From Campylobacterota bacterium (lineage in GTDB: Bacteria; Babelota; Babeliae; Babelales; RVW-14), in contig JACKCO010000003.1 in NCBI GenBank assembly GCA_020633995.1, positions 585,503-649,502 of the forward strand: DNA of 64,000 nucleotides, given 5' to 3'. The translations under genes and the position numbers were made by a program. This document shows, piece by piece, positions 4,368-52,466 of this stretch. How positions within the stretch are numbered: position 1 is the first letter of the stretch; each line of letters starts with the position of its first letter. The notes below the pieces were generated by a model that saw nothing but the letters and a program-made list of their open reading frames with translations, was not told the DNA's origin and did no database searches.

Positions 4368-5393
4368 ATGGGGTGTCGATTAGCTCTTTTATTGGGCTTA
4401 TGTGTTGCTGTTATATCGTGTTACGCTGCTGAACACAGTGGTGGATCTGTTGGTTTGAATGCTGCAAATTGTATTGATGCATTGAATGCTGCAATTGCTG
4501 GAAATGATATTGGGCAGGTTAGAACCATTTTGGCGATAATAGACCAGCAGGAGTTGATTGGTTGTGAGCATGCGCTTGCATGTAGAGCAATACGTGAAAA
4601 GCGTTTTTTTGATATTGAGAGATTATTCAATCGTCTCAGTGGGTTCATTAACCAAGTGCCGGTTGATAAAAATGGCCTTACGCCACTTGATTGGGCTTTG
4701 TACGTTGGCAACCCAGAAATAATTAGGCTTATTACCTACGACAAGCGTGCAGGGTACCGGCTACTGCTTCATCAAGCCTATAAATATCGTTATCTAGCGG
4801 CGGCAAAAAAACTTATTGTGCTTGGAGCAAATGCTGAACAATGTGATGGTCTTGGACGTAATGTGTTGCATGCACTTGCCTTGAGCGAGGGTGAATCATG
4901 TTGGGGTGACTTGAATTACCTGCATGATGTTTGCTTTCGATATCACAGGCTACAGAGAAAGAGATTTAGCGTTTTTGAGCATTTGATGGGATTGCCATCA
5001 ATACTTGATCTTGTCGATATTGCTATGGCAGGAGGCGTACGGATTAATGTGGTCGATAGACAGGGGAAAAATCCCTTACATTTTGCTGTTTGGTCTGGCG
5101 ATTTGGGCATGGTAGAAATATTGCTCAAAGAGTACGGCGCACGAGCTCGTAGCTACGATTTTTTTGGTTATTCTCCCTTGCATTATGCTGCCGCTCGTGG
5201 GCAAAACGGAATTGCTGCATTGTTGCTTGACGAGCAATGTAATGAATTTGAAAAAGACGAAGAAGGTAAGACGGCTTTGTACTGGATGTTAAAGTTTAAA
5301 AATCAAGCTGCTATTAGGCATGTTATAGCAGCGTACGGTTTGATGCGAAGGGAGTCTGATGAAGAAGTTACTGATGATGCTGTTGCTGAGTAG
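4368..5393 (+). CDS. Ankyrin-repeat protein with signal peptide
   Basis: N-terminal MGCRLALLLGLCVAVISCYAAE. ANK units include GKNPLHFAVWSGDLGMVEILLKEYGA and GYSPLHYAAARGQNGIAALLL. Confidence 0.85.
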   Translation: MGCRLALLLGLCVAVISCYAAEHSGGSVGLNAANCIDALNAAIAGNDIGQVRTILAIIDQQELIGCEHALACRAIREKRFFDIERLFNRLSGFINQVPVDKNGLTPLDWALYVGNPEIIRLITYDKRAGYRLLLHQAYKYRYLAAAKKLIVLGANAEQCDGLGRNVLHALALSEGESCWGDLNYLHDVCFRYHRLQRKRFSVFEHLMGLPSILDLVDIAMAGGVRINVVDRQGKNPLHFAVWSGDLGMVEILLKEYGARARSYDFFGYSPLHYAAARGQNGIAALLLDEQCNEFEKDEEGKTALYWMLKFKNQAAIRHVIAAYGLMRRESDEEVTDDAVAE

Positions 5394-6213
5394 TGTCAGT
5401 TTAGCGTTACATGCAATGTCTCGTGAAAGGCCAAGGATTTATGATGGTCGTTTGGGCAAAACTATGCAGTTGCACAAGTTAGCAGCAGCAGGCGAGGAAG
5501 AGGTAGTTTTTCACTTGCTTGTGCAGGAAGGTGAGTGTCCAAATTATCCTGACGAGTACGGTCTATCACCCCTGCATATTGCGATACAGCACGACCAAAC
5601 ACTGATAGCTGCATATTTGATGCAGTATGGCGGAGATATCAACGCTCGGGATAATACGCTTAGAACTCCGTTGCATGAGGCCGTTTATTATGAACGGCAT
5701 GATGTGGTAGAAGCTTTGCTGCAAATACGCTGGATTGATATTAATGCGCAAGATGGTTGGGGCCAGACGCCAATACATGAAGCTTCTGATTTAGATGATC
5801 CCACAATGTTTGGCATGCTTGTTAAAGCTGGGGCGGCGTGTAATGTTGTCGATACCAATGGCTTTACGCCTTTGCATCGGGCGGCGAATTTTGGATGTCT
5901 GGAAATAGTTACGTATTTGGTCATTTGTACAGACCTGGATATTAACCAGCAAGACAATACTGGCTGGACTCCACTGCACTGGGCTGTTATGGGTGGCGAT
6001 CTTGAAATTATTGAAGTATTGCTTCGTTACGGTGCTGATCGAAGCATTACAAATCAACAGGGGCAGACACCCCGACAGTTAGCATTAGATTTTTGTTTTG
6101 ATGAAGAGGCGGCGGCCTTGTTCGAGCAAATTAAGGAGCCGGATAGGATTGAAGGGCGGGAGATTACGGGAGATATTTATTCAAATGTTGCTTCTGTTGG
6201 TTTGATCAGATAA
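5359..6213 (+). CDS. Ankyrin-repeat protein with signal peptide
   Basis: MKKLLMMLLLSSVSLALHA signal. There are at least 5 canonical ANK units (GLSPLHIAIQHDQ..., RTPLHEAVYYERHDVVEALL, GFTPLHRAANFGCLEIVTYLV, GWTPLHWAVMGGDLEIIEVLLRYGAD). Overlaps the upstream ANK gene by 35 nt. Confidence 0.9.
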   Translation: MKKLLMMLLLSSVSLALHAMSRERPRIYDGRLGKTMQLHKLAAAGEEEVVFHLLVQEGECPNYPDEYGLSPLHIAIQHDQTLIAAYLMQYGGDINARDNTLRTPLHEAVYYERHDVVEALLQIRWIDINAQDGWGQTPIHEASDLDDPTMFGMLVKAGAACNVVDTNGFTPLHRAANFGCLEIVTYLVICTDLDINQQDNTGWTPLHWAVMGGDLEIIEVLLRYGADRSITNQQGQTPRQLALDFCFDEEAAALFEQIKEPDRIEGREITGDIYSNVASVGLIR

Positions 6214-6257: not shown

Positions 6258-6893
6258 ATGAAGTATATGGTATCTTGTAGTCTTATTTTTGTATTTTTTG
6301 TGAGTGTTGCGCATGGAGCTGAGGGGGGTGGACAAGGTCAGGCTGATGCACCAAGGAAAAGAAGCGCTTCGTTAAGAGACTTAGTTTTAAAAAAAAGTCA
6401 TTCAGGGGGAAGTCTTGGTGATACAGAGCAGGAACAATATGAAAGGTTATCTACAGAATCACCCACTGATGTTGATTTTAAACCGGGTGATGTTGGAGAT
6501 ACCGCTTTGATTATGTCTGTAAAAAAGGGAAGTAGGAGTTTGAGCGCAACAAATTTATTGCTTACTCATAATGCTAATCCTAATGTGGTCGATAATCAAA
6601 AGATGTCGGTATTGCATCATGCCTTAAGGAATAAAGATCGACAGCATTTTAACCTGTTGGTGACTAAGATGTCTTTGGGAAGTCTCAATGGTTTGGATAG
6701 CAGTGGCCTAGCTCCTTTGCACTATGCTATTTTGTGGGGTGATTTAGATGTTGTTGCAAAGTTATTAGAGAAAGGCGTAAACAAGATGCTTTTGACAGAA
6801 GCGGGACAGACTCCTTTGCAGCTTGTACAAAGCGCTGGTCATGATACTAAAACAAGTGTTATTCTTGCTGAGATGTTAAAACCTGAAAACTAG
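6258..6893 (+). CDS. Ankyrin-repeat protein with signal peptide
   Basis: MKYMVSCSLIFVFFVSVAHGAE signal. ANK units GDTALIMSVKKG...LLLTHNANPN and GLAPLHYAILWGDLDVVAKLLEKGVN. Confidence 0.85.
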   Translation: MKYMVSCSLIFVFFVSVAHGAEGGGQGQADAPRKRSASLRDLVLKKSHSGGSLGDTEQEQYERLSTESPTDVDFKPGDVGDTALIMSVKKGSRSLSATNLLLTHNANPNVVDNQKMSVLHHALRNKDRQHFNLLVTKMSLGSLNGLDSSGLAPLHYAILWGDLDVVAKLLEKGVNKMLLTEAGQTPLQLVQSAGHDTKTSVILAEMLKPEN

Positions 6894-6919: not shown

Positions 6920-7408
6920 ATGGTAGCTGCTATTATGTTCTTTTTTTTGGACCTTGTAGCATTTATATTTTTTGAAGGCTGGTATGTGCATGCATTACTA
7001 GCCTACTTTTTTTTACAGTTGTTGGAAGGCTCAGACGAGTTTTGGTATGTTGCCCGCCTTGCTGGCATATTGCTGCTTCTTCTCGTGCAGGATAGCCTAC
7101 GATTTGCCCATTTTGGTTTGAGTCTGAGCTACCTAATTCCCCTAGCACTGCTTGCTTGGTATGGTAGGCAGATAGTCTTGTACGCCCCTTGGAGCTTGAT
7201 ACATCTGCTTGTGCCGTGTGCTGTGCTAGCGGATAGCCTTTTCTTGCATCCTAAAAGTGTGCTTTCAAATGGCATTTTTTATTTGTCAATTCAGAAAATT
7301 TTTATTACTCTAATGGTAGGATATATGATTCTTTTGGGTACGCGGGGTAGTCGCTTTTTAGCTCATATTTGGGCCAAAAAGAGGAAAGTCTGGACTCCTT
7401 ACAGATAG
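6920..7408 (+). CDS. Polytopic membrane protein, unassigned (MreD-like size and topology only)
   Basis: About 5 hydrophobic segments and no recognisable motif. The last ~45 nt run into rnpB. Confidence 0.5.
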   Translation: MVAAIMFFFLDLVAFIFFEGWYVHALLAYFFLQLLEGSDEFWYVARLAGILLLLLVQDSLRFAHFGLSLSYLIPLALLAWYGRQIVLYAPWSLIHLLVPCAVLADSLFLHPKSVLSNGIFYLSIQKIFITLMVGYMILLGTRGSRFLAHIWAKKRKVWTPYR

Positions 7409-7734
7409 GATGCCTTGTTAGACAGGCTTCAGGTCGTCAAGCAAGGGGGGCGTGAGCCTATGGAAAGTGCCACAGAAAGCTATACCGCCAGAGAGGGTTA
7501 CCTTTTCTGGTAAGGGTGAAAACGTGCGGTAAGAGCGCACGAACAGCAGCGGCAATGTTGCTGTTGGGAAAACCCCATTCGGAGCAAGACAAAGTAGGCA
7601 GGTTGTTACGGGTTGATCTGTTCCCAATACCTGCGGGTATGTCGCATAGATAAATGATTGCCACTTGTTGTCAAAAGCCTTAGGCTAATGGCAATAAGTA
7701 CAAAATCCAGCTTACAAGTGTGCCCAAAACATAT
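7364..7734 (+). ncRNA. rnpB: RNase P RNA, bacterial type A (ends approximate)
   Basis: Universal conserved regions are present: GAGGAAAGTCTGGACTCC (CR-I), GGTAAGGGTGAAAACGTGCGGTAAGAGCGCAC (CR-IV) and ACAAAATCCAGCTTAC (CR-V). A P1-like pairing joins tttgggc (7368-7374) to gcccaaa (7722-7728). Confidence 0.9.
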
Positions 7735-13205: not shown

Positions 13206-14459
13206 ATGAATCGAGTTATAACGCGCTTTGAAAAAATTAAGAGATTGTTTTTGAACAAAGAGGGGTACTTTGAAGAGGTTATACGTGAGTTTGAAAACAA
13301 AAAATCTAAGCGCTTATACCAAGAAGCATCACAACTTTTGGCCAAGGCACGAAATGAACAAGAAAGACTTAGTGAGCTTAAGCGGGTCATAGAGCGGGAT
13401 GATCTTGCAGGAGTCGATGAGTTCAAGGCCTTGTTAAAATCTTTCAAGAAAAATTACAGGGACTTAGTTGCTATAACCAAGCCGTTTTGGAAAGAGCTTC
13501 TTGAAGAGTTAATTATCCCACTTGCAATCATTATCATTTTACAAATGTTTGTTTTTGGTCTGTATCATGTTCCTTCCGGTTCGGCTGAGCCAAATTTGTT
13601 GGTGGGTGACCGCATCTGGGGAAATAAGACTGCCTATTACTTTAACCCCGTGCAGCGTGGCGATTTGGTTTTGCTTGATAACCCAGAATTTGTCTATGAC
13701 AAGTCAAGTAAGTTCAAGTATCTCTGGCAGCGGTATATTGGTATAGCAGTACCATTTTTAGGGATAGCAGAGGGGCCAGAGGTTCCAAACATGGTTAAAC
13801 GAGTTATAGCCATCCCCGGAGACACCATTGAAGGTAGAGTTGATGAAAACAATCACCCCGTTATTTATTTGAATGGTGAAGTGCTTAAAGAACCGTATGT
13901 CAATCAGCATCCACTGATTGTACTTAAAAAAACAGCTGGCCTGATAGATCAGTCCTGGGTGCCTTTTTTTAAGGTTCCAGATTTTATTCGTAGGCAGGAA
14001 AAGCTTGTTCGTTACACGCACGATATTACTCGTCCATATGATAAGCAGCCTTACTATTGCGTTGAAGAGGATGAAATAAAAACAAAGCCTGGCAGTAATA
14101 TGCCCATTTTGATTCAGCCAAATACTTCAACATCGAGTAGCGCGCTACTATGGGGAAGCGTTCAACGCATTAATCGTGATATCTTTGGACCCATTACTAT
14201 TCCTGAAGGAAAATATTGGGTTATGGGAGACAGTCGCAAGAATAGCGCAGACAGCCGTTGGTTTGGCTTACTAGATAGAAGTTTGATTTATGGGCGTGCG
14301 AGTTTTGTTTTGTACTCGGTTGATAGTGAGGAATCGTTTTGGATTTTTGATTTGATCAAGCATCCGGTTGCTTTTTGGACCAAGCATGTGCGATGGAATA
14401 GATTCTTTAAGCCGTTGTGGACGTACAATAGATGGAAAGGTTCAAAGACTGAGGAATAA
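13206..14459 (+). CDS. lepB: Signal peptidase I with a long N-terminal cytoplasmic extension (paralog 1)
   Basis: Box B SGSAEPNLLVGDRI, box D VKRVIAIPGDTIE and box E GDSRKNSADSRWFG. The single TM sits about 100 aa from the N-terminus. Confidence 0.85.
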   Translation: MNRVITRFEKIKRLFLNKEGYFEEVIREFENKKSKRLYQEASQLLAKARNEQERLSELKRVIERDDLAGVDEFKALLKSFKKNYRDLVAITKPFWKELLEELIIPLAIIIILQMFVFGLYHVPSGSAEPNLLVGDRIWGNKTAYYFNPVQRGDLVLLDNPEFVYDKSSKFKYLWQRYIGIAVPFLGIAEGPEVPNMVKRVIAIPGDTIEGRVDENNHPVIYLNGEVLKEPYVNQHPLIVLKKTAGLIDQSWVPFFKVPDFIRRQEKLVRYTHDITRPYDKQPYYCVEEDEIKTKPGSNMPILIQPNTSTSSSALLWGSVQRINRDIFGPITIPEGKYWVMGDSRKNSADSRWFGLLDRSLIYGRASFVLYSVDSEESFWIFDLIKHPVAFWTKHVRWNRFFKPLWTYNRWKGSKTEE

Positions 14460-14465
14460 AAAAGC

Positions 14466-14490
14466 GGGGCTGGGAAAAAACCCGAGCCCC
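14466..14490. terminator. Bidirectional terminator hairpin between the convergent lepB and Nudix genes
   Basis: ggggctggg aaaaaa cccgagcccc stem-loop, flanked by an A-run upstream and a T-rich tract downstream. Confidence 0.6.
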
Positions 14491-14533
14491 ACTTTGTTGA
14501 GGTTGAGAGCTTAGATAAATCCAAGCTTTTTTA

Positions 14534-15667
14534 TTACCTTGAGCTACGGCCTTTTCTGCTTGCTCTGGCATCGCGTGATCTACCACCGCGACCTTTGCTA
14601 CGACCGCCACTACGACTGCTTCGTCCTCCACCGCGACCACGACGAGAACCGCTTCTGTCACCTCTACGGCTTTGTTTTTCCATTCGTCCGCCTCGGCGAC
14701 CACCACGACCTCTGTCATGACGTCTTGGTTTATCACTTTCTTCTTCTGAGTCAGCATCTTCGCTAATCTTTTTAATGTTAGGATTTACAGAAAGAAAACC
14801 TTTGATCATCTTTTTACCAGCATGCTTATTGAATTTTTTGTAAGCATCAATAGCCATTTGTTTGTGATCTTTTGCAAACCATTCTGAATCAGGGATAGCT
14901 TCAATTTCTTCAAGCGTTGCAATGCGTACCTGGCCAGCTTCAGCAGTCTCTTTTGGAGTGTCTGACGTGATACCCGCATAGCAGAATGAGACGATATGTT
15001 GGCGAGCATCACGATGAGGATCGTCATAGACACCAATTAACTTGGTACTTTCAACAGGAACGCTAATCTCAACTTCTTCTGCCGCTTCGCGAATACCGCT
15101 TTCTACTGCAGTTTCAAAGTATTGAGTAAAGCCGCCAATTGGAGCCCATTTTTTATCTGCCTTACGTTCGATAATGATTAAGCCTTCAACCTTGCCTGTT
15201 GCTGGGTTCATGTAAAAAGTAAGCAAATCAGTCGCAGTGTAAGGACCCTCTTGGGTTGTTAGCATCCAATGAAAGGGTTCTGTAAGTTTTTCAGCAATTT
15301 CTCGGAATTGGTGATGCACTGCCAGGTAACGCATAACATCGTTAAATGAACAATCATAGCGTCCAATCGTTTTGCCTGGAAATTCATGTTCAAGTTCCTT
15401 TTGAAGATCTTCAGATAGCTGATTTTGGTCGATTGACTCTAAAAATTGTTTTACTGGACCTTTTTTGAATTCAAGTAGTAAGTTGCGAAGTTCTTGGAAT
15501 TTGTCGTAGGCGTATGATGTGCCGCGTTCTGCAGCACTTGCTTTGGCAGCATCAAGCTTTTTTTGTCCCAGTTCTTCAAGCTTTGCATTGAAAGTTACTT
15601 CAGCGTGTGCAAGGCCTGAAGTACTCAGTAAAAGACCTACTAGAAACAAATATCTTTTGGAGTACAT
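14534..15667 (-). CDS. Exported Nudix hydrolase with a C-terminal Arg/Gly-rich (RGG-like) tail
   Basis: Start chosen at MYSKRYLFLVGLLLSTSGLAHA (RBS gagagagga). Nudix box GFTQYFETAVESGIREAAEEVEI. The last 64 aa contain 23 Arg and 17 Gly by my count. Confidence 0.8.
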   Translation of the reverse strand: MYSKRYLFLVGLLLSTSGLAHAEVTFNAKLEELGQKKLDAAKASAAERGTSYAYDKFQELRNLLLEFKKGPVKQFLESIDQNQLSEDLQKELEHEFPGKTIGRYDCSFNDVMRYLAVHHQFREIAEKLTEPFHWMLTTQEGPYTATDLLTFYMNPATGKVEGLIIIERKADKKWAPIGGFTQYFETAVESGIREAAEEVEISVPVESTKLIGVYDDPHRDARQHIVSFCYAGITSDTPKETAEAGQVRIATLEEIEAIPDSEWFAKDHKQMAIDAYKKFNKHAGKKMIKGFLSVNPNIKKISEDADSEEESDKPRRHDRGRGGRRGGRMEKQSRRGDRSGSRRGRGGGRSSRSGGRSKGRGGRSRDARASRKGRSSR

Positions 15668-15889
15668 AATATCCTCTCTCGGAAATGGGTTTGACCTATG
15701 GTTAACTATCATAAATATGCCACAAGTTTATTAATAATTTCAATTATTTAATATTTTTAATCAGAGTTCGTCTTACATGTATCGTTGCCATTCTTTAAAA
15801 CGACCAAAAAAACCTTGAAAAAAGCCCGATTTTACGGCATGATTGAGTGGTAAAATGTTATATTACAGGTTTTAGGGAAGGATTATAAC

Positions 15890-16148: not shown

Positions 16149-17453
16149 ATGTCTTCGCATACAAAAATATCGTTTTGGAGCGGTGTTTTAATGACTTTGA
16201 ATATTATCATCGGTGCTGGTGTGTATGTTAGCTCTCAAAAAATGGCCGAAATATCTAAAGATGCAAGCTTTTTTGGCTGGGGCGTTGTTGGGCTTTTGTT
16301 GTTACCCCTGGTATGGAGTTTCTCTTATTCGACAAAAATATTCACCGGCGAGGGGGGTGGCTTTTACCAATATTGTACTCGCGGTATTAATGAGACTGCC
16401 GGGTTTTTGGCGCATTGGTTGTATGTGCTTGGCTATATAGCTGCAGATGCTGTACTCGTAGTGGTTGTCAAGGATGAGCTTGCAAAAATTGAAGGATGCT
16501 CATTTTTTGCTGATTACGGCTTTTTGACGAGTGTAGGTCTAATTCTTGTTTTCTCGCTGCTTAATTTAATTGGTTTGCAAACGATCAGCAAGATACAGAG
16601 TTATGGTACAGTACTAAAAATAATCCCATTATTAATGGTTATTGGTTGGTTTATTTTGCACCCTAATATTGGAACCATCAATATTGCCACGCCAGACCTC
16701 ATGAGTATCCGCTATACAATTCCAGTGGCTATTTTTGCATTGTTTGGAACAGAAGCTTGTTGCAGTATTACTCATTTGATGGAAGGGGGGCAAGCACAGG
16801 CATCAAAAGTTATCTTTACTGCATTTGCCCTTGTTATGATCCTATACACTTCTTTTCATCTGGGCTTGGTAAGCATGATGGGAGGTTTTGGTCTTGCAGA
16901 TTATGGAACATCTCAATTCCCACAGTTTTTTGAATTCTCTGGTCCGATAACAGCTTTTTTACAAACATTTGTTGGTTTTGCGATTCTGTTTAGCATGATT
17001 AACACGTTATTTGGCATCATGCTTATGAATGTTACTAACTTGCAAACGCTTGCGGACAAAAAATTACTTCCGGGATCAGATGCATTGGTGAAAATGAATC
17101 GCCACCACAGGCCTGTAAGGCTTGTTTGGTTGCACGCTGCAGTGTTGACTGTTTTGGTTGCTTTCGTTTCTAATTTAGGAATCTTGATGGCATTGACCAG
17201 CCTTGGCCTGTGTGCTACGTACTTGCTCAATGTCGTAGCTGTTTTGAGAACGTCATGGTTGAAAAAAGCATACGTTGGATTTGTGGGCTCACTACTTGCA
17301 ATGGGATCGTGCGGTGTTTTGATGTATTACAGTTGGATCAAAATTCATGATGATGTGTTTACGCGATTTGTATACGCATCTCCAGTTATGCTTGGGGTAG
17401 TGCTTGGGCTTGTTTTATATAAAGTGGCAAAAAGCCGTCATGTACATGCATAA
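16149..17453 (+). CDS. APC-superfamily amino acid permease
   Basis: About 12 TM segments. The N-terminal block FWSGVLMTLNIIIGAGVYV is typical of APC transporters. Strong RBS aaggag. Confidence 0.8.
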   Translation: MSSHTKISFWSGVLMTLNIIIGAGVYVSSQKMAEISKDASFFGWGVVGLLLLPLVWSFSYSTKIFTGEGGGFYQYCTRGINETAGFLAHWLYVLGYIAADAVLVVVVKDELAKIEGCSFFADYGFLTSVGLILVFSLLNLIGLQTISKIQSYGTVLKIIPLLMVIGWFILHPNIGTINIATPDLMSIRYTIPVAIFALFGTEACCSITHLMEGGQAQASKVIFTAFALVMILYTSFHLGLVSMMGGFGLADYGTSQFPQFFEFSGPITAFLQTFVGFAILFSMINTLFGIMLMNVTNLQTLADKKLLPGSDALVKMNRHHRPVRLVWLHAAVLTVLVAFVSNLGILMALTSLGLCATYLLNVVAVLRTSWLKKAYVGFVGSLLAMGSCGVLMYYSWIKIHDDVFTRFVYASPVMLGVVLGLVLYKVAKSRHVHA

Positions 17454-35223: not shown

Positions 35224-35322
35224 ATTAGGGCTTGAAAGGTTGCAAAACAAGGTCTTCTTTTATTATATCTACAGGTGGTAAAAGTATCGAATAGGAGCTA
35301 CCTAGTGGGTAAGGAGATGGTT

Positions 35323-36084
35323 ATGAACTTTGCTCAAGCTTTGACATTATATCTTTTGGTTTACGGAACATTATTGGCTAGCCAAGTAAGTGCAGAAAAC
35401 AGGCCGGAACAGCAGCAATTAACAGAAAAAAATAATGGGATTGTTATAATTCTAAACGGTTCCTCTGCGGTTGGTAAGTCAAGCATACAACGGGTTTTGC
35501 AAGAAACATTTACGGACGATCCGTTTTTGGCCATGGGAATAGACAAGTGTTTTGTTGAGTTATTGCCTAAGCGGTATATCACAACAATAGCTAAAAAGAA
35601 TAAAGAGGTCATTTGGGGAAGACCATCGATGGACGAAGAGGGCAATCCGCTTTTCTATGTCGATTTTGGTCCTAAGGGTAGGAAAATTATTTTAGGCATG
35701 AATAGTGCTATCGCTGCTTATGTACGACGAGGTAATAGTGTCATCGTTGATTACATAGCCTACGAACATGCCTGGCTTGATGACTTAGTACGTGAACTAC
35801 ATGACTGCACTGTTTACTTTGTAGCGGTAAAAGCCGACATTGCAGTGATTGAAAAGCGAGAGGCTGATCGTGGCATCTCACCGCGGGGACATGCACGTAC
35901 ACACTACCAGACAGTTCATGAAAATGCGATTTATGATTTTGAAGTTGATAACACTGAGTTAACGCCTGAGCAAGCTGCAGAACAAATTAAGGCGTTTATA
36001 GATCAGACGCCTGAGCCTCAAGCTTTTAAAATGATGTATACAAGGCTTGCAGAAAGGGAGGCAAGCGTAGTACCTGCGGCATAA
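35323..36084 (+). CDS. Chloramphenicol phosphotransferase-like (CPT family) P-loop kinase with signal peptide
   Basis: MNFAQALTLYLLVYGTLLASQVSA signal. IVIILNGSSAVGKSSIQRVLQ and LAMGID match the CPT P-loop and catalytic Asp region (from memory). RBS aaggag. Confidence 0.75.
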   Translation: MNFAQALTLYLLVYGTLLASQVSAENRPEQQQLTEKNNGIVIILNGSSAVGKSSIQRVLQETFTDDPFLAMGIDKCFVELLPKRYITTIAKKNKEVIWGRPSMDEEGNPLFYVDFGPKGRKIILGMNSAIAAYVRRGNSVIVDYIAYEHAWLDDLVRELHDCTVYFVAVKADIAVIEKREADRGISPRGHARTHYQTVHENAIYDFEVDNTELTPEQAAEQIKAFIDQTPEPQAFKMMYTRLAEREASVVPAA

Positions 36085-37273: not shown

Positions 37274-38947
37274 TTATATCTTATAATTCATAATAAAGTC
37301 TGTGAGCAGACGTACGCCTGCACCGGTACCACCTTCACCGAGGTAGTTGATCCCTGGAACCCTTTTTGCTGTGCCAGAGGTATCAATGTGTGCCCACTTA
37401 GTGTCGCGGATAAATTCACTTAAAAAACAACCACCAGAGATGCAGCCCGCAAGATAAGTATTTGAAGGTGTGTTGGCGACGTCAGCAACGGATGATTTAT
37501 TTGCTTGCTTGTAGTCTTCGTCAAATGGCATTTGCCAAACTCTATCACCACTACGTTGTCCACTGGTAACAAGTTGATTGGTAAGATTTTTGTCATTACT
37601 CACAAGGCCAGCATAAAAGTGTCCCAGAGCATGTTTGCAAGCTCCAGTTAGGGTTGCTATATCGATAATAACATCTGGCTGATAAAAGCTTTCAGCATAG
37701 CAAAGTGCATCAGACAAAATAAGGCGACCTTCAGCATCGGTATTTTTAACTTCGATACTTTTACCATTCATCGCTCTGATAATATCGTCTTGACGAGCTG
37801 CATTGCCATCAGGCATGTTCTCAACCATGGGGGTGATTCCAACAACATTGACGGCTGGTTTTAGTTGAGCAATTACGCTCATGGTTGCGATAACTGCAGC
37901 AGCGCCACACATGTCATACTTCATGTCTGTCATGCCGGTGGCTGGTTTCAAGCTAACGCCACCAGTATCAAAGGTTACACCCTTGCCGCACAGGGCAATA
38001 GTTGGTGCGTTTTCAAGGCCAGAATCGTACTCAAGAATAACAAATTTTCCATCTTGTTGTGAGCCGCTGGTAACCGCGAGGAAACCGCCCATTTTTAGTT
38101 CCTCTGCATCTTCTTCCTCCAGGATAGTGCAGCTAAAATCATATTTTTCTGCAAGTCTTTTTGCTTCTGTAGCAAATTCTGATGGAGTTAAAATATTTGC
38201 GGGTAGATCTCCCCAATGACGTGCCATATTAGTTGCATTTCCCAGTATATTGCCAAATTCGACTGCTGTGTTGTTTTCGTCAGTTTTTTCAAGGCCTGTC
38301 AGCCAAACCACACATGGGTTATTTTTTGCGTCTTCATTGTTTGATTTAAATGTGTCAAATGAATAGTATGCCAAGTGATAAGCACATGTTGCATGATGTA
38401 TTAAGTTTTGCGTATTGATATCAAAAAAACTTGCATCGGGTAGTGCTAGAGCGACATTATTTGCTTGTAATTTTTTTGCTTCTTTCACCGCATGGCCAAT
38501 TGCTCGTCTGAATAGCTCAAGGTTACGCTCTCCTGTGTGGTGGAGTTCGCCCAGCCCGACGAACAGACAGTGAGAGCGGCCTTCATCTGTTGGTGTATAA
38601 AGGTAGGTTTGGCCTACTTTACCCTCAAAATGAACTCGTTTGAGTATGGTTATAATTTGCTCTTGCATGCTTTCTTCAATGTTTTCCAAGGCTTGTGCTG
38701 TATTGAGTGGTACTAACTCGTGGTTGACAAAAACGACATGAACATTTGCTTGAGTCTGCCATAGGCTTTGTGGACTGAGTTTAACGGCTACATTGCTGTT
38801 ATAGATGGCAACATCGGGGCAACGTTTTTGTTCGCCATCTATTCGATGCTTACGCAATGATTGTTTTGTTTTTGCGGTTGCCGACGTAAGACTTACAAAC
38901 AACGCCATGATACAACACAATGCACGAGCTAAGGTCATCTGTTTCAC
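37274..38947 (-). CDS. pepA: M17 leucyl aminopeptidase with signal peptide and an extended N-terminus
   Basis: NTDAEGRLILSDAL signature and VTFDTGGVSLKP. N-terminus MKQMTLARALCCIMALFVSLTSATA. Confidence 0.9.
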   Translation of the reverse strand: MKQMTLARALCCIMALFVSLTSATAKTKQSLRKHRIDGEQKRCPDVAIYNSNVAVKLSPQSLWQTQANVHVVFVNHELVPLNTAQALENIEESMQEQIITILKRVHFEGKVGQTYLYTPTDEGRSHCLFVGLGELHHTGERNLELFRRAIGHAVKEAKKLQANNVALALPDASFFDINTQNLIHHATCAYHLAYYSFDTFKSNNEDAKNNPCVVWLTGLEKTDENNTAVEFGNILGNATNMARHWGDLPANILTPSEFATEAKRLAEKYDFSCTILEEEDAEELKMGGFLAVTSGSQQDGKFVILEYDSGLENAPTIALCGKGVTFDTGGVSLKPATGMTDMKYDMCGAAAVIATMSVIAQLKPAVNVVGITPMVENMPDGNAARQDDIIRAMNGKSIEVKNTDAEGRLILSDALCYAESFYQPDVIIDIATLTGACKHALGHFYAGLVSNDKNLTNQLVTSGQRSGDRVWQMPFDEDYKQANKSSVADVANTPSNTYLAGCISGGCFLSEFIRDTKWAHIDTSGTAKRVPGINYLGEGGTGAGVRLLTDFIMNYKI

Positions 38948-39059: not shown

Positions 39060-40583
39060 TTATTTGTAGCTCATCACAAATTCGGTTAAAAGTCTGATGC
39101 CTGCACCCGTTGCACCCTTTCCTAGGTAATTTACAGCTGGTACGTCGTTTGATGTTCCTGCTATGTCAATGTGTGCCCATTTTGCTTTATCAACAAACTC
39201 GCTTAAAAAGCATGCGCCAATGATGGTACCTGCAAGGTATGCTCGTGAGCCTGAATTGTTGACGTCGGCAACGTCAGAATCATTAGATTTTTTGTAGTCT
39301 TCATCAAATGGTAGTGGCCAAACTCGATCACCAGTCAAGGTGCCGGCTTCGACAAGTTTTTTGCTCAATGCTTCATCGTTGCCCATGATGCCCGAGTAAA
39401 AGTGTCCAAGTGCATGGACGCAGGCGCCGGTTAGTGTTGCGATATCGATGATAATTTCTGGAGAATAAAATTTTTCAGCATAGCAGAGTGCGTCGGCTAA
39501 AATAAGTCGACCTTCCGCGTCGGTGTTTTGAATCTCGATGGTTTTACCGTTAAGTGCGGTAACGACATCGTCTTGACGTGAGGCATTTCCGCCCGGCATG
39601 TTTTCAACCAGCGGGGTAATACCAACGACATTAACTTTAGGCTTAAACACAGACAAAATACTCATGGTTGCCAGTACCGCAGCAGCTCCAGACATATCGT
39701 ATTTCATGCCGGTCATGTAGTTTGATGGCTTCAGGCTAATGCCCCCGGTGTCAAACATGACGCCCTTTCCGCACAAAGCAATGGTCGGGGCATCTTTTTT
39801 ATCAGTATGGTATTCAAGAACAATAAATTTGCCTTCCTGCTCAGAGCCTCGGTCTACAGAAAGAAATGCTCCCATGCCAAGCTCTTGTGCTCGTTCTTGG
39901 CCAAATATGGTCGCCTTAAGTCCATGTTTGTCAGCCAGCTCTTGTGCTTGTTTGGCAAGCTCGGTTGGGGTGAGAATGTTTGCTGGTAGGTCAGCCCAGT
40001 GACGTGCCATATTCATAGCTTGCCCAATGGTTTGGCCGTGTGTAAGGCGCGGAATAAAATGTTCCTGCTCAATTGCACTGTCAACGGCGATAAAAAGTTT
40101 GCCGTTCCATTCTTTGCCTTTTTTGCCTGTTTTAAAAGTAATAAATTCATAGTCGGCCATATAAGCAGTGATGACGAGTTGTTTGAGTAGCTCAGTATCG
40201 TTGACATTAAACTTGTCTACTGCTGGTAGGGCAACAACAGCGTTTTGAATGGAAAGTCTTTTAAGCTGGCCAATGCCTGAGCCGATTGCGCGGCGTAAGA
40301 TTTCCAGGTTGCGGTCCCAGCTGTCAGGTAGGCTACCAACTCCAATAAAAATGAACTGAATGAGCTTGTCATTTTTACTTTCGGTTAAAACAAAAGACTG
40401 GCCTTTTTTCCCTTCGAATTGATGCTTTTTTAAAATATCTTTTAGTCGGGTGTAGTAATTCTGTTCAATATGTTCAAGATTTGCCTCGGGTGTCAGAGAG
40501 CTTAGCTTGTCATCAAGCAGCAAAATATAACCCTCAACGTCGTTGTCCCAAAATTTTTTTTGGCTTAAAGCAACGTTCAACAT
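39060..40583 (-). CDS. pepA: M17 leucyl aminopeptidase (cytoplasmic-type paralog)
   Basis: NTDAEGRLILADAL and VMFDTGGISLKP. No signal peptide. Confidence 0.9.
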   Translation of the reverse strand: MLNVALSQKKFWDNDVEGYILLLDDKLSSLTPEANLEHIEQNYYTRLKDILKKHQFEGKKGQSFVLTESKNDKLIQFIFIGVGSLPDSWDRNLEILRRAIGSGIGQLKRLSIQNAVVALPAVDKFNVNDTELLKQLVITAYMADYEFITFKTGKKGKEWNGKLFIAVDSAIEQEHFIPRLTHGQTIGQAMNMARHWADLPANILTPTELAKQAQELADKHGLKATIFGQERAQELGMGAFLSVDRGSEQEGKFIVLEYHTDKKDAPTIALCGKGVMFDTGGISLKPSNYMTGMKYDMSGAAAVLATMSILSVFKPKVNVVGITPLVENMPGGNASRQDDVVTALNGKTIEIQNTDAEGRLILADALCYAEKFYSPEIIIDIATLTGACVHALGHFYSGIMGNDEALSKKLVEAGTLTGDRVWPLPFDEDYKKSNDSDVADVNNSGSRAYLAGTIIGACFLSEFVDKAKWAHIDIAGTSNDVPAVNYLGKGATGAGIRLLTEFVMSYK

Positions 40584-42262: not shown

Positions 42263-43450
42263 CTAGTATAAACGATTATCACTGTTTTTGTAAGCGCTGC
42301 TTGGTGGTCCATTAAGAAATAACATCAACTGAAAATTTATTTTCATCATGGAGAGGCAGCCTGCATTATAGGGGTTAGCCAGTAGATGCAAAGAATCCTG
42401 CGATATTTTATCAGATATATCAACTTGTTCTTTTTTTTCAAAGTCAAAAAAGTGTACATCAAAGTATTCTTGATTGAATTTATTGCAGTGGTAGCTTGTT
42501 ATAGCGATTAATGATTTTCCAGATGTTGAGAAAAAAAGATCAGTAAATCTGCATTTTTTCCAACTACTAAAGCTGGCTATGTGCTCGCCAGTCCTATCAT
42601 AAACATAAATAATGTGTGGATCGTCTGGTGTTGTGTATGCGGCAAACTGGCCGTTGGGGGCAAAGGCAAAGCATGAGATGTTCTTTTTTGTAGGGCGGAG
42701 TTCACCGTTTTCAAGAGCAATCATGGAGACGTTAGTGCCATGTTGTACAGCAAGCAGTGAACTGTTTGGATTGAAGCCTATGAGTTTTATAGGCTTGGTA
42801 AAGCTTAAGCATTCATGTTCGTTTTTTTCTAAGTTGAAAATATAAATACAGTTTTCGGTTTCGCTGCGTGTTTGAACAATCAGAAAGTTGCCGCAGGGGC
42901 TGAAAAGCATTGTAACGAGTTCGCTGTTGGAAAAGGGGGCTGAGAAGTCATGTGTTTGTTCATCGTCTTTGTTGTAAATTGCTATCTTATTTTCATCGTT
43001 GTGTGAGTAATATTTTGCTAAACCATTGTGTAATGGATGAGGCGCAACATAATGTATTAACTGATCTTGTCCGAGCTTGTTGCAGCTTTTTTCTTTGCCA
43101 AAACTGTATTTAGATTTTACACGTTTTACATCTTGTATGATTGTTTTTCCACATCCTGTGTAGTAATATTCGATATGAGTATCGAATACTAAAAGAAATG
43201 AGTCTCCATTATAATTAAAAGCAAACTGTTTGAAGTTTTTGTTTTCAATCTGAAGCTCGTCACGAAGATATTCGCCTTTTGCATTCTTTCTGTAGATAGT
43301 GATGGTTCCATGGTCACAAATTGCCCTGTGATCGCCACGTGGGGTCTGAAAAAAACCATATTCAAAACAATAGGATTTTTCGCTTGCTTGTATGAAGTTT
43401 GGTGACAAGATAGATATGATGGAGAGAAAGACTGGTAAATATTTTTTCAT
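42263..43450 (-). CDS. Secreted beta-propeller-like (WD40/TolB-like repeat) protein
   Basis: Signal MKKYLPVFLSIISILSPNFIQA. Recurrent F(S/N/A)P.G..(L/A)(I/A)(V/Y) strands: FSPCGNFLIVQT, FNPNSSLLAVQH, FAPNGQFAAYTT, FSTSGKSLIAIT. Confidence 0.55.
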   Translation of the reverse strand: MKKYLPVFLSIISILSPNFIQASEKSYCFEYGFFQTPRGDHRAICDHGTITIYRKNAKGEYLRDELQIENKNFKQFAFNYNGDSFLLVFDTHIEYYYTGCGKTIIQDVKRVKSKYSFGKEKSCNKLGQDQLIHYVAPHPLHNGLAKYYSHNDENKIAIYNKDDEQTHDFSAPFSNSELVTMLFSPCGNFLIVQTRSETENCIYIFNLEKNEHECLSFTKPIKLIGFNPNSSLLAVQHGTNVSMIALENGELRPTKKNISCFAFAPNGQFAAYTTPDDPHIIYVYDRTGEHIASFSSWKKCRFTDLFFSTSGKSLIAITSYHCNKFNQEYFDVHFFDFEKKEQVDISDKISQDSLHLLANPYNAGCLSMMKINFQLMLFLNGPPSSAYKNSDNRLY

Positions 43451-44619: not shown

Positions 44620-45657
44620 ATGGCAACACGAGCGATCGTTACTGGAGTGTTTGGGCAAGATGGGTCGTACCTGGCTGAGTTTTTGCTTGGGCAAGGGTAT
44701 GAAGTGTATGGCGTCTATCGCCGTTGCATTGCTCATGGTGAGGATGAAAATGTTGCACATCTAAAAAATCACCAAAATTTCAAACTTGTTGAAAGCGATA
44801 TTCTCGAGTATAGCTCATTGACTGAATTGATCAGCGACACTAAGCCAGAGTTTTTTTTCAATCTTGCAGCACAAAGTCATGTAGGTTACTCTTTCAAAGT
44901 TCCTATAGAAACGTTTCGCGTAGATGCTGAGGCGGTTATTGCACAGCTTGATATCATTCGTCGTGTCTCGCCAAAAACACGATATTATCAAGCAAGTACC
45001 AGTGAAATGTTTGGGGGTATTGATTGTCCCAAACATGGGTATACAGAGCAGCACCCACTTAATCCTTGCTCGCCTTATGCAGTAGCAAAAGTTGCCGCTC
45101 ATCATGCGGTTAAAAATTATCGTCAAGCATATGGTTTGTTTGCTTGTTCGGGAATTTTGTTTAATCACAGTAGCCCGCGACGAGGGTATGATTTTGCAAC
45201 GCGCAAAATTACTCACGGAGTTGCACAAATTGTCGCAGGTAAGCAGCAATATCTACCTATGGGTAACATGGATGCATTTCGTGATGAGGGGCATGCAAAA
45301 GATTATGTAAAGGCACAATATTTGATGTTGATGCAAGACAAAGCTGATGACTATGTTGTAGCAACGGGCGATGGTGCAACTATCAGGCAAATGCTTGAGT
45401 ATGTTTGTCAGCTTGCAGGCCTTGCCTACGATGATGTCTATCGCATGAACCCAGAGTTTATGCGGCCAAGTGATGTACCGTTTTTACTCGGTGATTCGTC
45501 AAAAATACGTAGCATTGGTTGGCAGCCTGAGTACGATTGGAAAAAGCTGCTCAAGGAGATGTTTGAGCATGACTGCAGTTTGCAAAGCTCTGCCAATGTA
45601 AATAGTCTGCAGATTAAAAGGACACAGGAATTTACAAGCAAGACTGCTAGGACTTAG
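44620..45657 (+). CDS. gmd: GDP-mannose 4,6-dehydratase
   Basis: AIVTGVFGQDGSYLAEFLLGQGYEVYG, STSEMFG, SPYAVAK and ILFNHSSPRRG are colinear with E. coli Gmd (from memory). RBS aaggaga. Confidence 0.9.
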   Translation: MATRAIVTGVFGQDGSYLAEFLLGQGYEVYGVYRRCIAHGEDENVAHLKNHQNFKLVESDILEYSSLTELISDTKPEFFFNLAAQSHVGYSFKVPIETFRVDAEAVIAQLDIIRRVSPKTRYYQASTSEMFGGIDCPKHGYTEQHPLNPCSPYAVAKVAAHHAVKNYRQAYGLFACSGILFNHSSPRRGYDFATRKITHGVAQIVAGKQQYLPMGNMDAFRDEGHAKDYVKAQYLMLMQDKADDYVVATGDGATIRQMLEYVCQLAGLAYDDVYRMNPEFMRPSDVPFLLGDSSKIRSIGWQPEYDWKKLLKEMFEHDCSLQSSANVNSLQIKRTQEFTSKTART

Positions 45658-46412
45658 TATTTGTTGAGAAGGTCTTGAATTTCTTCACAGACAGGTAAGT
45701 CATCTATGCTAATCGTAAAAATGTTGCTGTCCAGATCAAACCTTGTGAGTGCTGCTTCTTTGTTTGCGCCCATCGCAAGCAGACTTCTTACGACATCGGT
45801 GTTTTGAGATTCGCATGCGGTATAAAGTAGGGTTTTACTAAGGATTGTTGGCTGGTAGTTGATATTTTCCTTAAATGTTGGATGCCTGTTAATTAGTTTC
45901 AGTACAACTGTCCATGGTTGCCATTGACAGGCTGCATGTAAGACAGATGGAGCATCTGATTTTTTAAGCTCTATGGTAACGTCTGCGCCATGATGTAAAA
46001 GAAGGTCAATCATTTCTTCATCTGCGTATAAAACAGCGCAATATAATGGAGTTTTTCCCTTGTGATCTTGTACGTTTACTACGATTTGAGGAGATTGAGT
46101 ATTCTCTAAAATGTGTTTTGCGTGTGTGTAATCGTTGTTAAAAATTGCATCGAAGAGTTTTTCGGCGCTTGAAACGTCACCAGAGACAGTTTTTATAAGT
46201 TGAATTTCTTTTTTTCTAGTTGTAGAAATTGTTTTCTCGGGGCTGTCACTCTCAAAATAAACACCCCCATATTTTTTTATTATAGTTCTGTAGTCTTTTG
46301 AAAGTTTAGTTTTGGGGTAGCTGTAATTTCTCCTAATTTGTTCGAGTGAAAAAAGCGAAGCAGCGCAAGCATTGATAATAAAAATAGTAAATATGTATTT
46401 TTTCATGGTCAT
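45654..46412 (-). CDS. Ankyrin-repeat protein with signal peptide
   Basis: Signal MTMKKYIFTIFIINACAASLFS. ANK units GKTPLYCAVLYADEEMIDLLLHHGADV and TLLYTACESQNTDVVRSLLAMGAN. Confidence 0.8.
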   Translation of the reverse strand: MTMKKYIFTIFIINACAASLFSLEQIRRNYSYPKTKLSKDYRTIIKKYGGVYFESDSPEKTISTTRKKEIQLIKTVSGDVSSAEKLFDAIFNNDYTHAKHILENTQSPQIVVNVQDHKGKTPLYCAVLYADEEMIDLLLHHGADVTIELKKSDAPSVLHAACQWQPWTVVLKLINRHPTFKENINYQPTILSKTLLYTACESQNTDVVRSLLAMGANKEAALTRFDLDSNIFTISIDDLPVCEEIQDLLNKY

Positions 46413-46541: not shown

Positions 46542-47096
46542 TTGGGTTGGTGTAAAAAGTCTATTATAAAAGGGTTTTGTGTGCAGGATGGGATTGAATG
46601 GGTTGACCTAGTCGACCAAAATGATTGTGTGGTCAAACAAGTCTGTCGTAATCAAGCTATGCTTGATGGACTTAAGTATATTCGTGCCATTAACGTATTT
46701 ATCATAAACCAGCAGGGAAAGTTGTGGATTCCTCGTCGGGCAAAAACAAAACGTTTTTACCCAGGGTGTCTAGATGTTGGGGTTGGTGGATGCGTGCAAG
46801 CAGGCGAGACTTACGACCAAGCTTGTAAGCGTGAGCTTCAGGAAGAAATTGGTGACAGTTGGAAAAACAAACATATTCGTTCGGTTGTCAAGCTAAGCCC
46901 AGTCAATAACCCGGTTTCATCATTCATGCACGTCTATGAAATGCTTGTTCCAACCGGTTTTGAAATTTCTTACCCTTCTGAGGAATTTACGGAGCATTTT
47001 TGGCTAACGCCTTATGAGGTTATTGATCGTGTTGCTCGTGGTGACGGGGCAAAAAGTGACTTGCTGCATCTCATAAAAATAGTGTATAAAATTTGA
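46542..47096 (+). CDS. Nudix hydrolase (IDI-like long form; start uncertain, GTG 46581 is an alternative)
   Basis: Nudix box GGCVQAGETYDQACKRELQEEIGD, preceded by VDLVDQND...RAINVFIINQQGKLWIPRR. Confidence 0.8.
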   Translation: MGWCKKSIIKGFCVQDGIEWVDLVDQNDCVVKQVCRNQAMLDGLKYIRAINVFIINQQGKLWIPRRAKTKRFYPGCLDVGVGGCVQAGETYDQACKRELQEEIGDSWKNKHIRSVVKLSPVNNPVSSFMHVYEMLVPTGFEISYPSEEFTEHFWLTPYEVIDRVARGDGAKSDLLHLIKIVYKI

Positions 47097-51947: not shown

Positions 51948-52466
51948 TTACGAATTTGGTTTGCGTGCCAGATTGATGGGGATGGGCTCTTTGGGGTACT
52001 TACCAGCTAAGATGTTCGGTAAGTATTCGGTTATTCCTATGGGATAGATGATATATTTACACTTGGCCATTTGCTCTAATGAAAGCCACGCAATTTTTTT
52101 AATGACCATTTTTTCAGCATCAGTTAAATTTTCAAGATTAACATTTTGTTTTGTTGTGTGTGCTACGATGAATTGCTGTTTAAGTAGTGTGTGAGTACCT
52201 GAAAGTACAAGCTCAAATTCACCAATCCAGACAATAGGGCCAAGTGTAATCTCAGTTGCGGGAATTCCCGTTTCTTCATAAATTTCACGTAAAGCCGCAT
52301 CCTCAAGGGTTTCGTCAGCTTCTAGGCTGCCACCTATCATTTGCCAAAAAGGGCCATGGTAGGTTCCGTCAGAAGCAGTAGTTTTTGGATCGTCTGTGTA
52401 AAGCATGAGGAGCTCGTTTTTGTTATTGAGTAGAAGCACCTTGATACTTTTTCTTGTAGCTAACAT
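51948..52466 (-). CDS. Nudix hydrolase
   Basis: Nudix box GGSLEADETLEDAALREIYEETGI. Confidence 0.85.
   Translation of the reverse strand: MLATRKSIKVLLLNNKNELLMLYTDDPKTTASDGTYHGPFWQMIGGSLEADETLEDAALREIYEETGIPATEITLGPIVWIGEFELVLSGTHTLLKQQFIVAHTTKQNVNLENLTDAEKMVIKKIAWLSLEQMAKCKYIIYPIGITEYLPNILAGKYPKEPIPINLARKPNS

Follow-up and report, generated by a model that had tools for sequence, protein, structure and literature searches.

A putatively exported Nudix hydrolase with an arginine-glycine-rich tail in a probable Dependentiae genome

Background

Why should a bacterial enzyme that is apparently sent out of the cytoplasm end in a long tail rich in arginine and glycine (RG-rich), of a kind best known from eukaryotic proteins? 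The question is raised by one gene in a 64,000-nucleotide stretch of contig JACKCO010000003.1 of assembly GCA_020633995.1 (hereafter the window, that is, the whole stretch of DNA analysed), whose product combines a putative signal peptide, a helical region, a Nudix hydrolase domain, an acidic linker and the tail in question. An earlier note, made from the letters of the DNA, had proposed an exported, host-directed effector acting on capped RNA or on nucleotide-sugar pools. The reading favoured here, albeit tentatively, is that of a Sec-exported Nudix enzyme of the ADP-ribose pyrophosphatase (ADPRase) clade which would act on nucleoside-diphosphate-X (NDP-X) compounds of the host, the tail tethering it to polyanions or targeting it to nuclear or ribonucleoprotein (RNP) compartments of the host.

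Results

The existence of an open reading frame (ORF) that joins a Nudix domain to an RG-rich tail is confirmed. The identical protein is titled 'MAG: NUDIX hydrolase [Epsilonproteobacteria bacterium]' at NCBI (MAG, metagenome-assembled genome); its coordinates and those of all features mentioned below are given in Table 1. Two independent run-level assemblies of Logan agree with the window at 100% identity, tail included, SRR12358676 over 9.1 kb and SRR12358675 over 4.5 kb; since both carry identical DNA, the RG tail is not an artefact of assembly or of a frameshift.

At the N-terminus, inspection together with a crude heuristic finds the features of a Sec signal of the signal peptidase I type, namely an n-region MYSKRY (+2), an h-region LFLVGLLLSTSGL and a c-region AHA followed by E. 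The core consists of 13 uncharged hydrophobic residues, with A-H-A at positions -3 to -1 and an acidic residue at +1. These are textbook n-, h- and c-regions, and the earlier description of MYSKRYLFLVGLLLSTSGLAHA before EV as a cleavable-looking Sec signal holds by inspection. A signal-like hydrophobic segment is likewise present at the N-terminus of 8 of the 12 family relatives described below.

The signal is separated from the Nudix domain by a helical region of 118 amino acids (aa) which the earlier note overlooked. In an AlphaFold2 model derived from the family alignment, four helices lie in residues 23-132 (predicted local distance difference test, pLDDT, 60-87), and the region modelled alone reaches a pLDDT of 77. 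It is common to relatives P0002-P0012 and P0018, and gave zero matches in Pfam and zero matches in the PDB at E<=0.001 with Foldseek.

The Nudix domain itself is recognised by Pfam (NUDIX, PF00293) over residues 163-259 with E=4.9e-8 (33.5 bits, vs a gathering cut-off of 21.1). The same family-based model shows the alpha/beta/alpha Nudix fold over residues 141-300 with pLDDT 89-98, and Foldseek returned 556 PDB matches at E<=0.001, the best 50 listed all being Nudix-fold proteins. The box GFTQYFETAVESGIREAAEEVEI departs from GX5EX7REUXEEXGU at two positions only, both non-catalytic (U to A at 195, G to E at 200), and the Nudix fold with a near-canonical box, as proposed earlier, is borne out. 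The loss of a catalytic glutamate, which would have spoken against hydrolase activity, did not come to light: E194, E197 and E198 occur without exception in the 13 aligned family members, and by its glutamates the domain appears catalytically intact. Residues 23-312, the mature body, are acidic, with a net charge of -15 and an isoelectric point of 5.1.

Sequence comparison and modelled fold point to the ADP-ribose pyrophosphatase/NrtR-like (COG1051-type) clade as that to which the domain belongs. Among solved structures, Aquifex 2YYH matches best (E=1.9e-14 by sequence, 4.1e-28 by family profile), followed in the profile search by 2FML, 3I9X, the NadM-Nudix ADP-ribose pyrophosphatases of Francisella and Synechocystis, AraR/NrtR, CDP-Chase, ADPRase and NUDT9/TRPM2. 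Foldseek also puts 2YYH on top (template-modelling score, TM, 0.86), and then NadM-Nudix, NrtR and CDP-Chase; neighbours in the clade include the NadM-Nudix structures 2qjt and 2qjo, NrtR 3gz8 with bound ADP-ribose, and the ADPRase 4kyx. NCBIfam adds weak matches to NadM-Nudix models. A proline about 16 residues past the Nudix box is associated with ADPRases (motif of Dunn et al., cited in PMC5389931); P217, 16 residues past I201, occupies this X-loop position, which is suggestive only, and a proline is found there in 10 of 13 family members. The NADH-type SQPWPFPQS motif (PMC5389931) is not present in the protein. From these comparisons I would infer an ADP-ribose or NAD-type substrate.

The acidic linker SEDADSEEESD reported earlier is present at residues 302-312, and is followed by a tail of 65 aa, one more than the 64 first counted; the composition originally given, 23 Arg and 17 Gly, is correct, and 11 Ser complete the picture, for a net charge of +23. 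The tail contains four RGG and seven RG motifs, one di-RGG (RGGRRGG), one tri-RG (RGRGGRRG), and six RS plus six SR dipeptides; by pattern it shows the RG/RGG clustering of di-RGG or tri-RG motifs with spacers of 0-4 residues in a disordered region, AlphaFold2 giving pLDDT <50 to residues 314-374. An RGD tripeptide (RRGDRS, residues 334-336) also occurs in it, probably as a by-product of the RG-rich composition.

Nothing comparable was found elsewhere. No other Arg-rich segment of this kind exists in the window or in about 600 kb of Dependentiae DNA, none occurs among the 183 nearest Nudix proteins, and phmmer gave zero matches to the tail in the PDB. Several origins and roles of the tail were considered and rejected. 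Matches to the tail alone by tblastn were compositional noise in high-GC loci; a module recurring in Dependentiae did not appear in the same ~600 kb; fusion with a downstream small gene finds no footing, the ORF 3' of the closest relative being unrelated; and a generic C-terminal secretion tag would be expected to show among the other signal-bearing ORFs of the window, which display no trend towards positive charge (mean net charge of the last 20 residues, +0.13).

When 1.84 billion cluster representatives were searched exhaustively with HMMER, a small family came to light, P0002-P0012 and P0018 (235-334 aa, 38-47% identity), whose members have in common the Nudix domain, the helical region and a C-terminal WFAxDH motif. 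Neither the full protein nor the tail-less core brought up anything but the protein itself in word-indexed searches of 5.8 billion clusters, and the family profile found only P0001 (the window protein), P0018 and generic Nudix domains. The family motif, scanned against GTDB species genomes, gave 43 pattern matches and no relatives, 32 Dependentiae loci held no family member within 10 kb of lepB, and a scan of metagenomes of the Joint Genome Institute (JGI) gave only three distant, tail-less COG1051 proteins. The search for related Nudix-plus-RG-tail architectures that the earlier note had called for came back empty, both among the dozen or so relatives and among the 183 nearest Nudix proteins; relative P0005 has an independent disordered extension that ends in a K/R cluster. 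The bacterial contigs of the relatives carry ankyrin arrays, M17 and C11 peptidases and SecA/FtsZ genes, the FtsZ and M17 products being 45-57% identical to those of Dependentiae loci. The closest relative, P0002 (43% identity, with a signal peptide and without a tail), derives from the same runs, SRR12358676 and SRR12358675, as the window protein and adjoins a C11 peptidase gene; it may come from the same genome, as a paralog, or from another member of the Dependentiae that occurs alongside.

As to the organism, the Nudix gene and an amino-acid permease gene lie between the genes of two paralogs of LepB (signal peptidase I, S26). The paralogs are 52% identical to each other, and each has an N-terminal extension of about 90 aa and a conserved C-terminal HVRWNRFFK motif. 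Their relatives (42-57% identity) were found only in MAGs of Dependentiae/TM6/Babeliales, several of them labelled 'uncultured Pseudomonadota', and on sequence the extended architecture appears specific to Dependentiae; for this reason the NCBI label of Epsilonproteobacteria/Campylobacterota is almost certainly wrong, and the genome almost certainly one of Dependentiae (TM6). In the secretome of this phylum, hydrolases with Sec signals and ankyrin proteins are regarded as effectors, and 44% of the coding sequences of Chromulinavorax bear signal peptides (PMC6561590). The type II secretion system (T2SS) is core to TM6 (PMC4776705), and a T2SS-F gene is present in the window. Five signal-bearing ankyrin-repeat proteins, three of them in tandem, are encoded there too, a set typical of the Dependentiae effector arsenal.

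Other features of the window

The start of the Nudix gene adopted here has a Shine-Dalgarno-like sequence close by; an alternative ATG at 15712 would give a longer ORF of 392 aa and is without a Shine-Dalgarno sequence. Matches to the promoter consensus occur in the region in a number expected by chance, and the weak one listed in Table 1, read from 15743 to 15714, would place the start of transcription downstream of ATG 15712. On the minus strand the terminator reads GGGGCTCGGG-TTTTTT-CCCAGCCCC, then GCTTTTTTATT, and its G+C hairpin begins about 40 nt past the stop codon of the Nudix gene.

Many other products in the window have signal-like N-termini. Among them are three tandem class I methyltransferases dependent on S-adenosylmethionine (SAM), for which such N-termini are unusual, the class being cytoplasmic as a rule; a CYTH (triphosphate tunnel) enzyme, a short-chain dehydrogenase/reductase (SDR), a chloramphenicol-phosphotransferase-like (CPT-like) kinase and a WD40-like beta-propeller protein, all of cytoplasmic type and yet apparently exported; and one of two adjacent M17 leucyl aminopeptidases, which has a signal-like N-terminal extension of about 50 aa missing from the other, so that the pair looks like an exported and a cytoplasmic paralog. 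Two signal-bearing ORFans with zero Pfam matches have in common L(D/E)QTT..-type repeats and an ISPIK motif; their KRKR clusters (GEKRKRAP; C-terminal KKRKRDGEN) resemble nuclear localisation signals, and on sequence both are candidates for secreted, nuclear-targeted proteins.

Two further Nudix genes (Pfam E ~1e-14) encode proteins without signal and without tail, presumably housekeeping enzymes of the cytoplasm. In a 451-aa protein encoded elsewhere, TrmD, the tRNA 1-methylguanosine (m1G) methyltransferase, is followed by a fused SAM-dependent RNA methyltransferase domain (Methyltrn_RNA_4) at the C-terminus. The RNase P RNA gene (class A, 221 bits) overlaps the final ~70 nt of a membrane-like ORF of 162 aa, an overlap that is either genuine or the result of an ORF called too long. 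One ORF with zero Pfam matches ends in a Pro/Arg-rich basic C-terminus, ...NNVRPPRPPRPSRR, and its 5' end may lie past the edge of the window. Three tandem paralogous small membrane proteins have in common N-terminal H(A/C)(K/R)FYK.FL motifs.

Table 1. Coordinates of the Nudix gene, its parts and other features of the window
Feature	Positions	Strand	Description and basis
Putatively exported Nudix hydrolase with RG-rich tail	14534..15667	-	Complete ORF, 377 aa plus TAA stop; identical to NCBI MCB9493110.1
Signal peptide	15602..15667	-	Residues 1-22, MYSKRYLFLVGLLLSTSGLAHA, predicted cleavage between AHA and EV; n/h/c anatomy by inspection
Family-specific N-terminal four-helix region	15248..15601	-	Residues 23-140 (118 aa); AlphaFold2 helices, pLDDT ~60-92
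Nudix domain, predicted ADP-ribose pyrophosphatase/NrtR-like clade, plus C-terminal helices	14783..15247	-	Residues 141-295
Nudix box	15065..15133	-	Residues 179-201, GFTQYFETAVESGIREAAEEVEI; sequence
Acidic linker	14732..14764	-	SEDADSEEESD, residues 302-312, net charge -7; sequence
RG/RGG- and RS-rich polycationic tail, predicted disordered	14537..14731	-	Residues 313-377; composition, motif counts, pLDDT <50
RGD tripeptide in tail	14660-14668		Residues 334-336
Shine-Dalgarno-like sequence	15672..15679	-	AGAGAGGA (GAGAGGA), 4-5 nt 5' of ATG 15667; sequence reading
Sigma-70-like promoter match	15714..15743	-	TTGAAA, 18 nt spacer, TG-CATATT; consensus scan, weak evidence
Intrinsic terminator, hairpin plus T-run	14457..14492	-	Between the convergent lepB and Nudix genes; terminator scan and sequence reading
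LepB paralogs	13206-14459; 17472-18719	+	Signal peptidase I, S26
potABCD-like ATP-binding cassette (ABC) system	9297-13181
Amino-acid permease	16149-17453
Ankyrin-repeat proteins, tandem	4368-5393; 5359-6213; 6258-6893	+	Signal-bearing
Ankyrin-repeat proteins	30322-31251; 45654-46412	-	Signal-bearing
Membrane-like ORF	6920-7408	+	162 aa
RNase P RNA	7335-7730	+	Class A
Class I SAM methyltransferases, tandem	20790-21653; 21677-22543; 22618-23475	+	Signal-like N-termini
Small membrane proteins, tandem paralogs	23515-24120; 24146-24724; 24808-25287	-
ORFans with KRKR clusters	25800-26981; 28955-29428	-	Signal-bearing
CYTH enzyme	27167-27853	+	Signal-like N-terminus
SDR	32777-33640	-	Signal-like N-terminus
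CPT-like kinase	35275-36084	+	Signal-like N-terminus
WD40-like protein	42263-43450	-	Signal-like N-terminus
M17 leucyl aminopeptidases	37274-38947; 39060-40583	-	One with signal-like extension
Further Nudix gene	46542-47096	+	Signal-less, tail-less
Further Nudix gene	51948-52466	-	Signal-less, tail-less
TrmD fusion	59336-60691	-	451 aa
ORF with Pro/Arg-rich C-terminus	62903-63916	-	5' end may lie past window edge

Discussion

Dependentiae are obligate intracellular parasites of protists, and because the window comes from a genome of this phylum a host-directed role of the Nudix protein is, by analogy, plausible. To this extent the effector idea of the earlier note survives, with the Dependentiae genome, the five signal-bearing ankyrin proteins, the two ORFans with KRKR clusters, the T2SS-F gene and the precedent of secreted hydrolases on its side; the capped-RNA target that went with it does not (see below). 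After Sec export, the enzyme would be released by the T2SS, by vesicles or by lysis, and would then hydrolyse NDP-X compounds of the host, those of ADP-ribose or NAD(H) type being the most likely. The outcome would be either nucleotide scavenging for a bacterium without nucleotide and cofactor synthesis or a perturbation of NAD/ADP-ribose signalling in the host, comparable to that brought about by the Nudix effectors Avr3b and RipN. The tail would act as an electrostatic tether to polyanions, namely RNA, DNA, possibly poly-ADP-ribose (PAR) or acidic lipids, and inside a eukaryotic host it might serve in addition as a non-classical signal for nuclear, nucleolar or RNP-granule targeting. A bolder version, which I regard as unlikely, holds that host transportins and RNA/PAR-rich condensates (nucleolus, speckles, stress granules) concentrate the enzyme, which there strips ADP-ribose polymers, NAD caps or related NDP-X groups, and which would amount to a bacterial nucleomodulin with a non-classical, condensate-targeting import signal.

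Several observations weigh against the host-directed reading. Four of the 12 family relatives are without a signal peptide, and since some members lack it, P0003 genuinely so (its start lies 13 nt past the upstream gene), the family is not obligatorily exported. Signal-like N-termini are found on about 40% of the window ORFs of at least 150 aa, so that export is the norm in this genome, plausible for the Nudix gene and not distinctive of it; the signal, which had been taken as a hint of an effector, looks genuine by inspection and is nothing special to this gene. Moreover, many signal peptides in this genome may stand for periplasmic residence only, and a segment of charge +23 is unfavourable to Sec translocation against the proton-motive force. 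The RG tail is absent from all 12 family relatives; it is a singleton, and one found in a MAG. The protein has no ortholog above 50% identity among some 15 billion proteins. Finally, the substrate assignment is weak because the nearest structure, 2YYH, is that of a protein of undetermined function (PMC5389931).

Of the alternatives, a scavenger retained in the periplasm or at the surface is the most serious, though doubtful. Such an enzyme would never reach the cytosol of the host as a free effector; the tail would here hold it on the anionic envelope (lipopolysaccharide, outer membrane) or on captured nucleic acid, while imported or leaked NDP-X compounds (NAD, ADP-ribose, nucleotide sugars) are turned into nucleoside monophosphates and sugar phosphates for uptake. 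TM6 genomes, in which the biosynthesis of nucleotides and cofactors is missing, depend on transporters (PMC4776705), and the Nudix gene has uptake genes in its surroundings, namely the potABCD-like ABC system and the amino-acid permease. The signal-like N-termini of housekeeping-type enzymes in the window (M17 peptidase, SDR, CYTH, methyltransferases) and the ADPRase-clade fold suit such a role equally. However, the tail-less relatives do the same presumed job, the other exported proteins of the window show no sign of envelope-anchoring tails (see the mean terminal charge above), and the RG/RS make-up is more specific than a plain Lys/Arg anchor.

A distinctly unlikely alternative has the tail as a functionless, recent low-complexity extension, acquired through drift or loss of a stop codon by an ordinary exported member of the family. 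It is true that the tail is predicted to be disordered, is restricted to a single lineage, has zero detectable homologs and is missing from every relative found. The earlier note had named such absence in relatives as a sign of low-complexity drift; the absence is a fact, but the relatives are merely 38-47% identical and the DNA argues against drift. Indeed, the coding stretch holds no tandem repeat, and Arg, Gly and Ser are each written in a mixture of codons (CGT/AGA/CGC/CGA for Arg, GGT/GGC/GGA for Gly) that mirrors the usage of the genome; a DNA microsatellite, another candidate, was rejected on the same two counts. The GC content of the stretch is 0.487 vs 0.41 for the window, the opposite of what read-through into an AT-rich spacer would leave, which argues against an origin by stop loss. 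Likewise, 23 or more Arg in 65 residues has a probability of ~6e-16 at the 4.1% Arg of the genome, and the pattern runs from acidic to basic, ends at the stop codon and is followed directly by the terminator. With no DNA repeat, with mixed, genome-typical codons and with a GC content that goes against the AT bias, the tail looks selected rather than slipped, and the independent K/R-ended extension of relative P0005 points the same way.

The proposal of an RNA-tethered decapping effector of the Dcp2, poxvirus D9/D10 or RppH type, removing 7-methylguanosine (m7G) caps or the 5' pyrophosphate from host mRNA, must be regarded as very unlikely. Nudix enzymes of several clades are able to decap, and one of NAD type could in principle remove NAD caps, as NudC does. 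RG/RGG tails, too, bind RNA in eukaryotic proteins (PMC7165476). Yet sequence, profile and fold show no preference for decapping enzymes, all three favouring 2YYH, NadM-Nudix, NrtR and CDP-Chase, and the kinship once suspected with Dcp2, D9/D10 and RppH has to be given up. Pfam and NCBIfam gave zero matches to the DCP2 or RppH families, and the family-profile search found no decapping enzyme at E<=1e-3. In the structural comparison by Foldseek, of the three groups that the earlier note had singled out, the ADP-ribose pyrophosphatases came out near the top, RppH (4s2y) came only 34th by fold with a TM of 0.49, and Dcp2 was outside the best 50 PDB matches; similarly, viral decapping enzymes (poxvirus, African swine fever virus) were outside the best 50 BFVD matches, where generic and COG1051 Nudix proteins stood instead.

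That the N-terminus is not a working signal, and the protein a cytoplasmic, RNA-associated Nudix enzyme with a basic tail like those of bacterial RNA helicases and RNases, is highly improbable. Basic disordered tails are indeed known on bacterial RNA enzymes, and four family members are without a signal peptide. Against this stand the textbook n/h/c regions with their AXA site and acidic +1 residue, the signal-like N-termini of most relatives, and the two signal-less Nudix genes that the window already contains. Positively charged C-termini are translocation signals of type IV secretion systems (T4SS) in Agrobacterium and Rickettsiales. The last and least likely alternative, an Arg-rich C-terminus that addresses the protein to a dedicated machine of the VirB/D4-type T4SS kind, has against it the absence of any positive-charge trend at the C-termini of other signal-bearing window proteins, the length of the RG/RS tract (65 aa, far longer than such signals) and the core genomes of TM6, reported with parts of the T2SS and of the type IV pilus, not with a T4SS (PMC4776705).

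The favoured reading, an exported ADPRase-clade enzyme directed at the host, would have consequences beyond this gene. Dependentiae are widespread and almost uncultured protist parasites whose large Sec-dependent secretomes are essentially uncharacterised, and the exported helical-plus-Nudix family offers a tractable entry to how these bacteria tap or disturb the NAD/ADP-ribose pools of their hosts. Should the tail direct the enzyme to RNA or nuclear compartments of the host, this would be the first bacterial effector to borrow a disordered targeting module of RG/RGG type, and the Nudix-effector strategy of plant pathogens would extend to parasites of protists. An inert tail, on the other hand, would leave nothing more than another exported hydrolase of a parasite genome.

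Comparison with known systems

The Aquifex aeolicus protein O67435 (2YYH) is close in structure (TM 0.86, root-mean-square deviation 2.1-2.5 Å, 33% identity) and has the RDxR and xDH motifs past the Nudix box; in contrast with the window protein, it is a cytoplasmic single domain of 139 aa without signal, helical N-domain or tail. The NadM-Nudix ADPRase and NrtR/AraR domains (COG1051; 2QJT, 2QJO, 3GZ8, 5BS6) resemble it in the TxD strand, the Pro-containing X-loop and the C-terminal DH motif, but are cytoplasmic, about 20% identical and fused to nicotinamide mononucleotide (NMN) adenylyltransferase or to a winged-helix DNA-binding domain; unlike in the NrtR regulators, the catalytic glutamates of the window protein are intact. 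With RppH, Dcp2 and the viral D9/D10 it has the Nudix fold and the catalytic box in common, and no preferential similarity.

For the tail, the likeness is to the disordered RG/RGG and RS regions of eukaryotic proteins such as CIRBP and FUS, with which it has in common the di-RGG, tri-RG and RS/SR grammar and the predicted disorder. This is a likeness of composition only, with no detectable homology, and the window tail sits on an exported bacterial enzyme. In eukaryotes, such regions bind RNA and drive the formation of condensates, RG/RGG regions being import signals for Transportin-1 and RS(Y) regions for Transportin-3 (PMC7165476).

As a concept, not by any comparison of sequence, the closest parallel is offered by the Nudix effectors of pathogens, namely Phytophthora Avr3b, Ralstonia RipN/Hpx26 and Colletotrichum CtNUDIX, which combine a secretion signal with a Nudix hydrolase and are delivered to a eukaryotic host (PMC4981494). 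Avr3b hydrolyses NADH and ADP-ribose (PMC3213090), and RipN localises to the endoplasmic reticulum and nucleus of the host and alters the NADH/NAD ratio (PMC6637912). These effectors rely on RXLR or type III secretion system delivery, act in plant hosts and have no reported RG/RGG tail, whereas the window protein has a Sec signal and comes from a parasite of protists. Secreted Nudix effectors are thus already known; what would be new, judging from sequence, is a Sec-signal bacterial version in a protist parasite, with a helical N-domain specific to the family and, most of all, with its singleton fusion to a eukaryote-like, disordered RG/RS tail.

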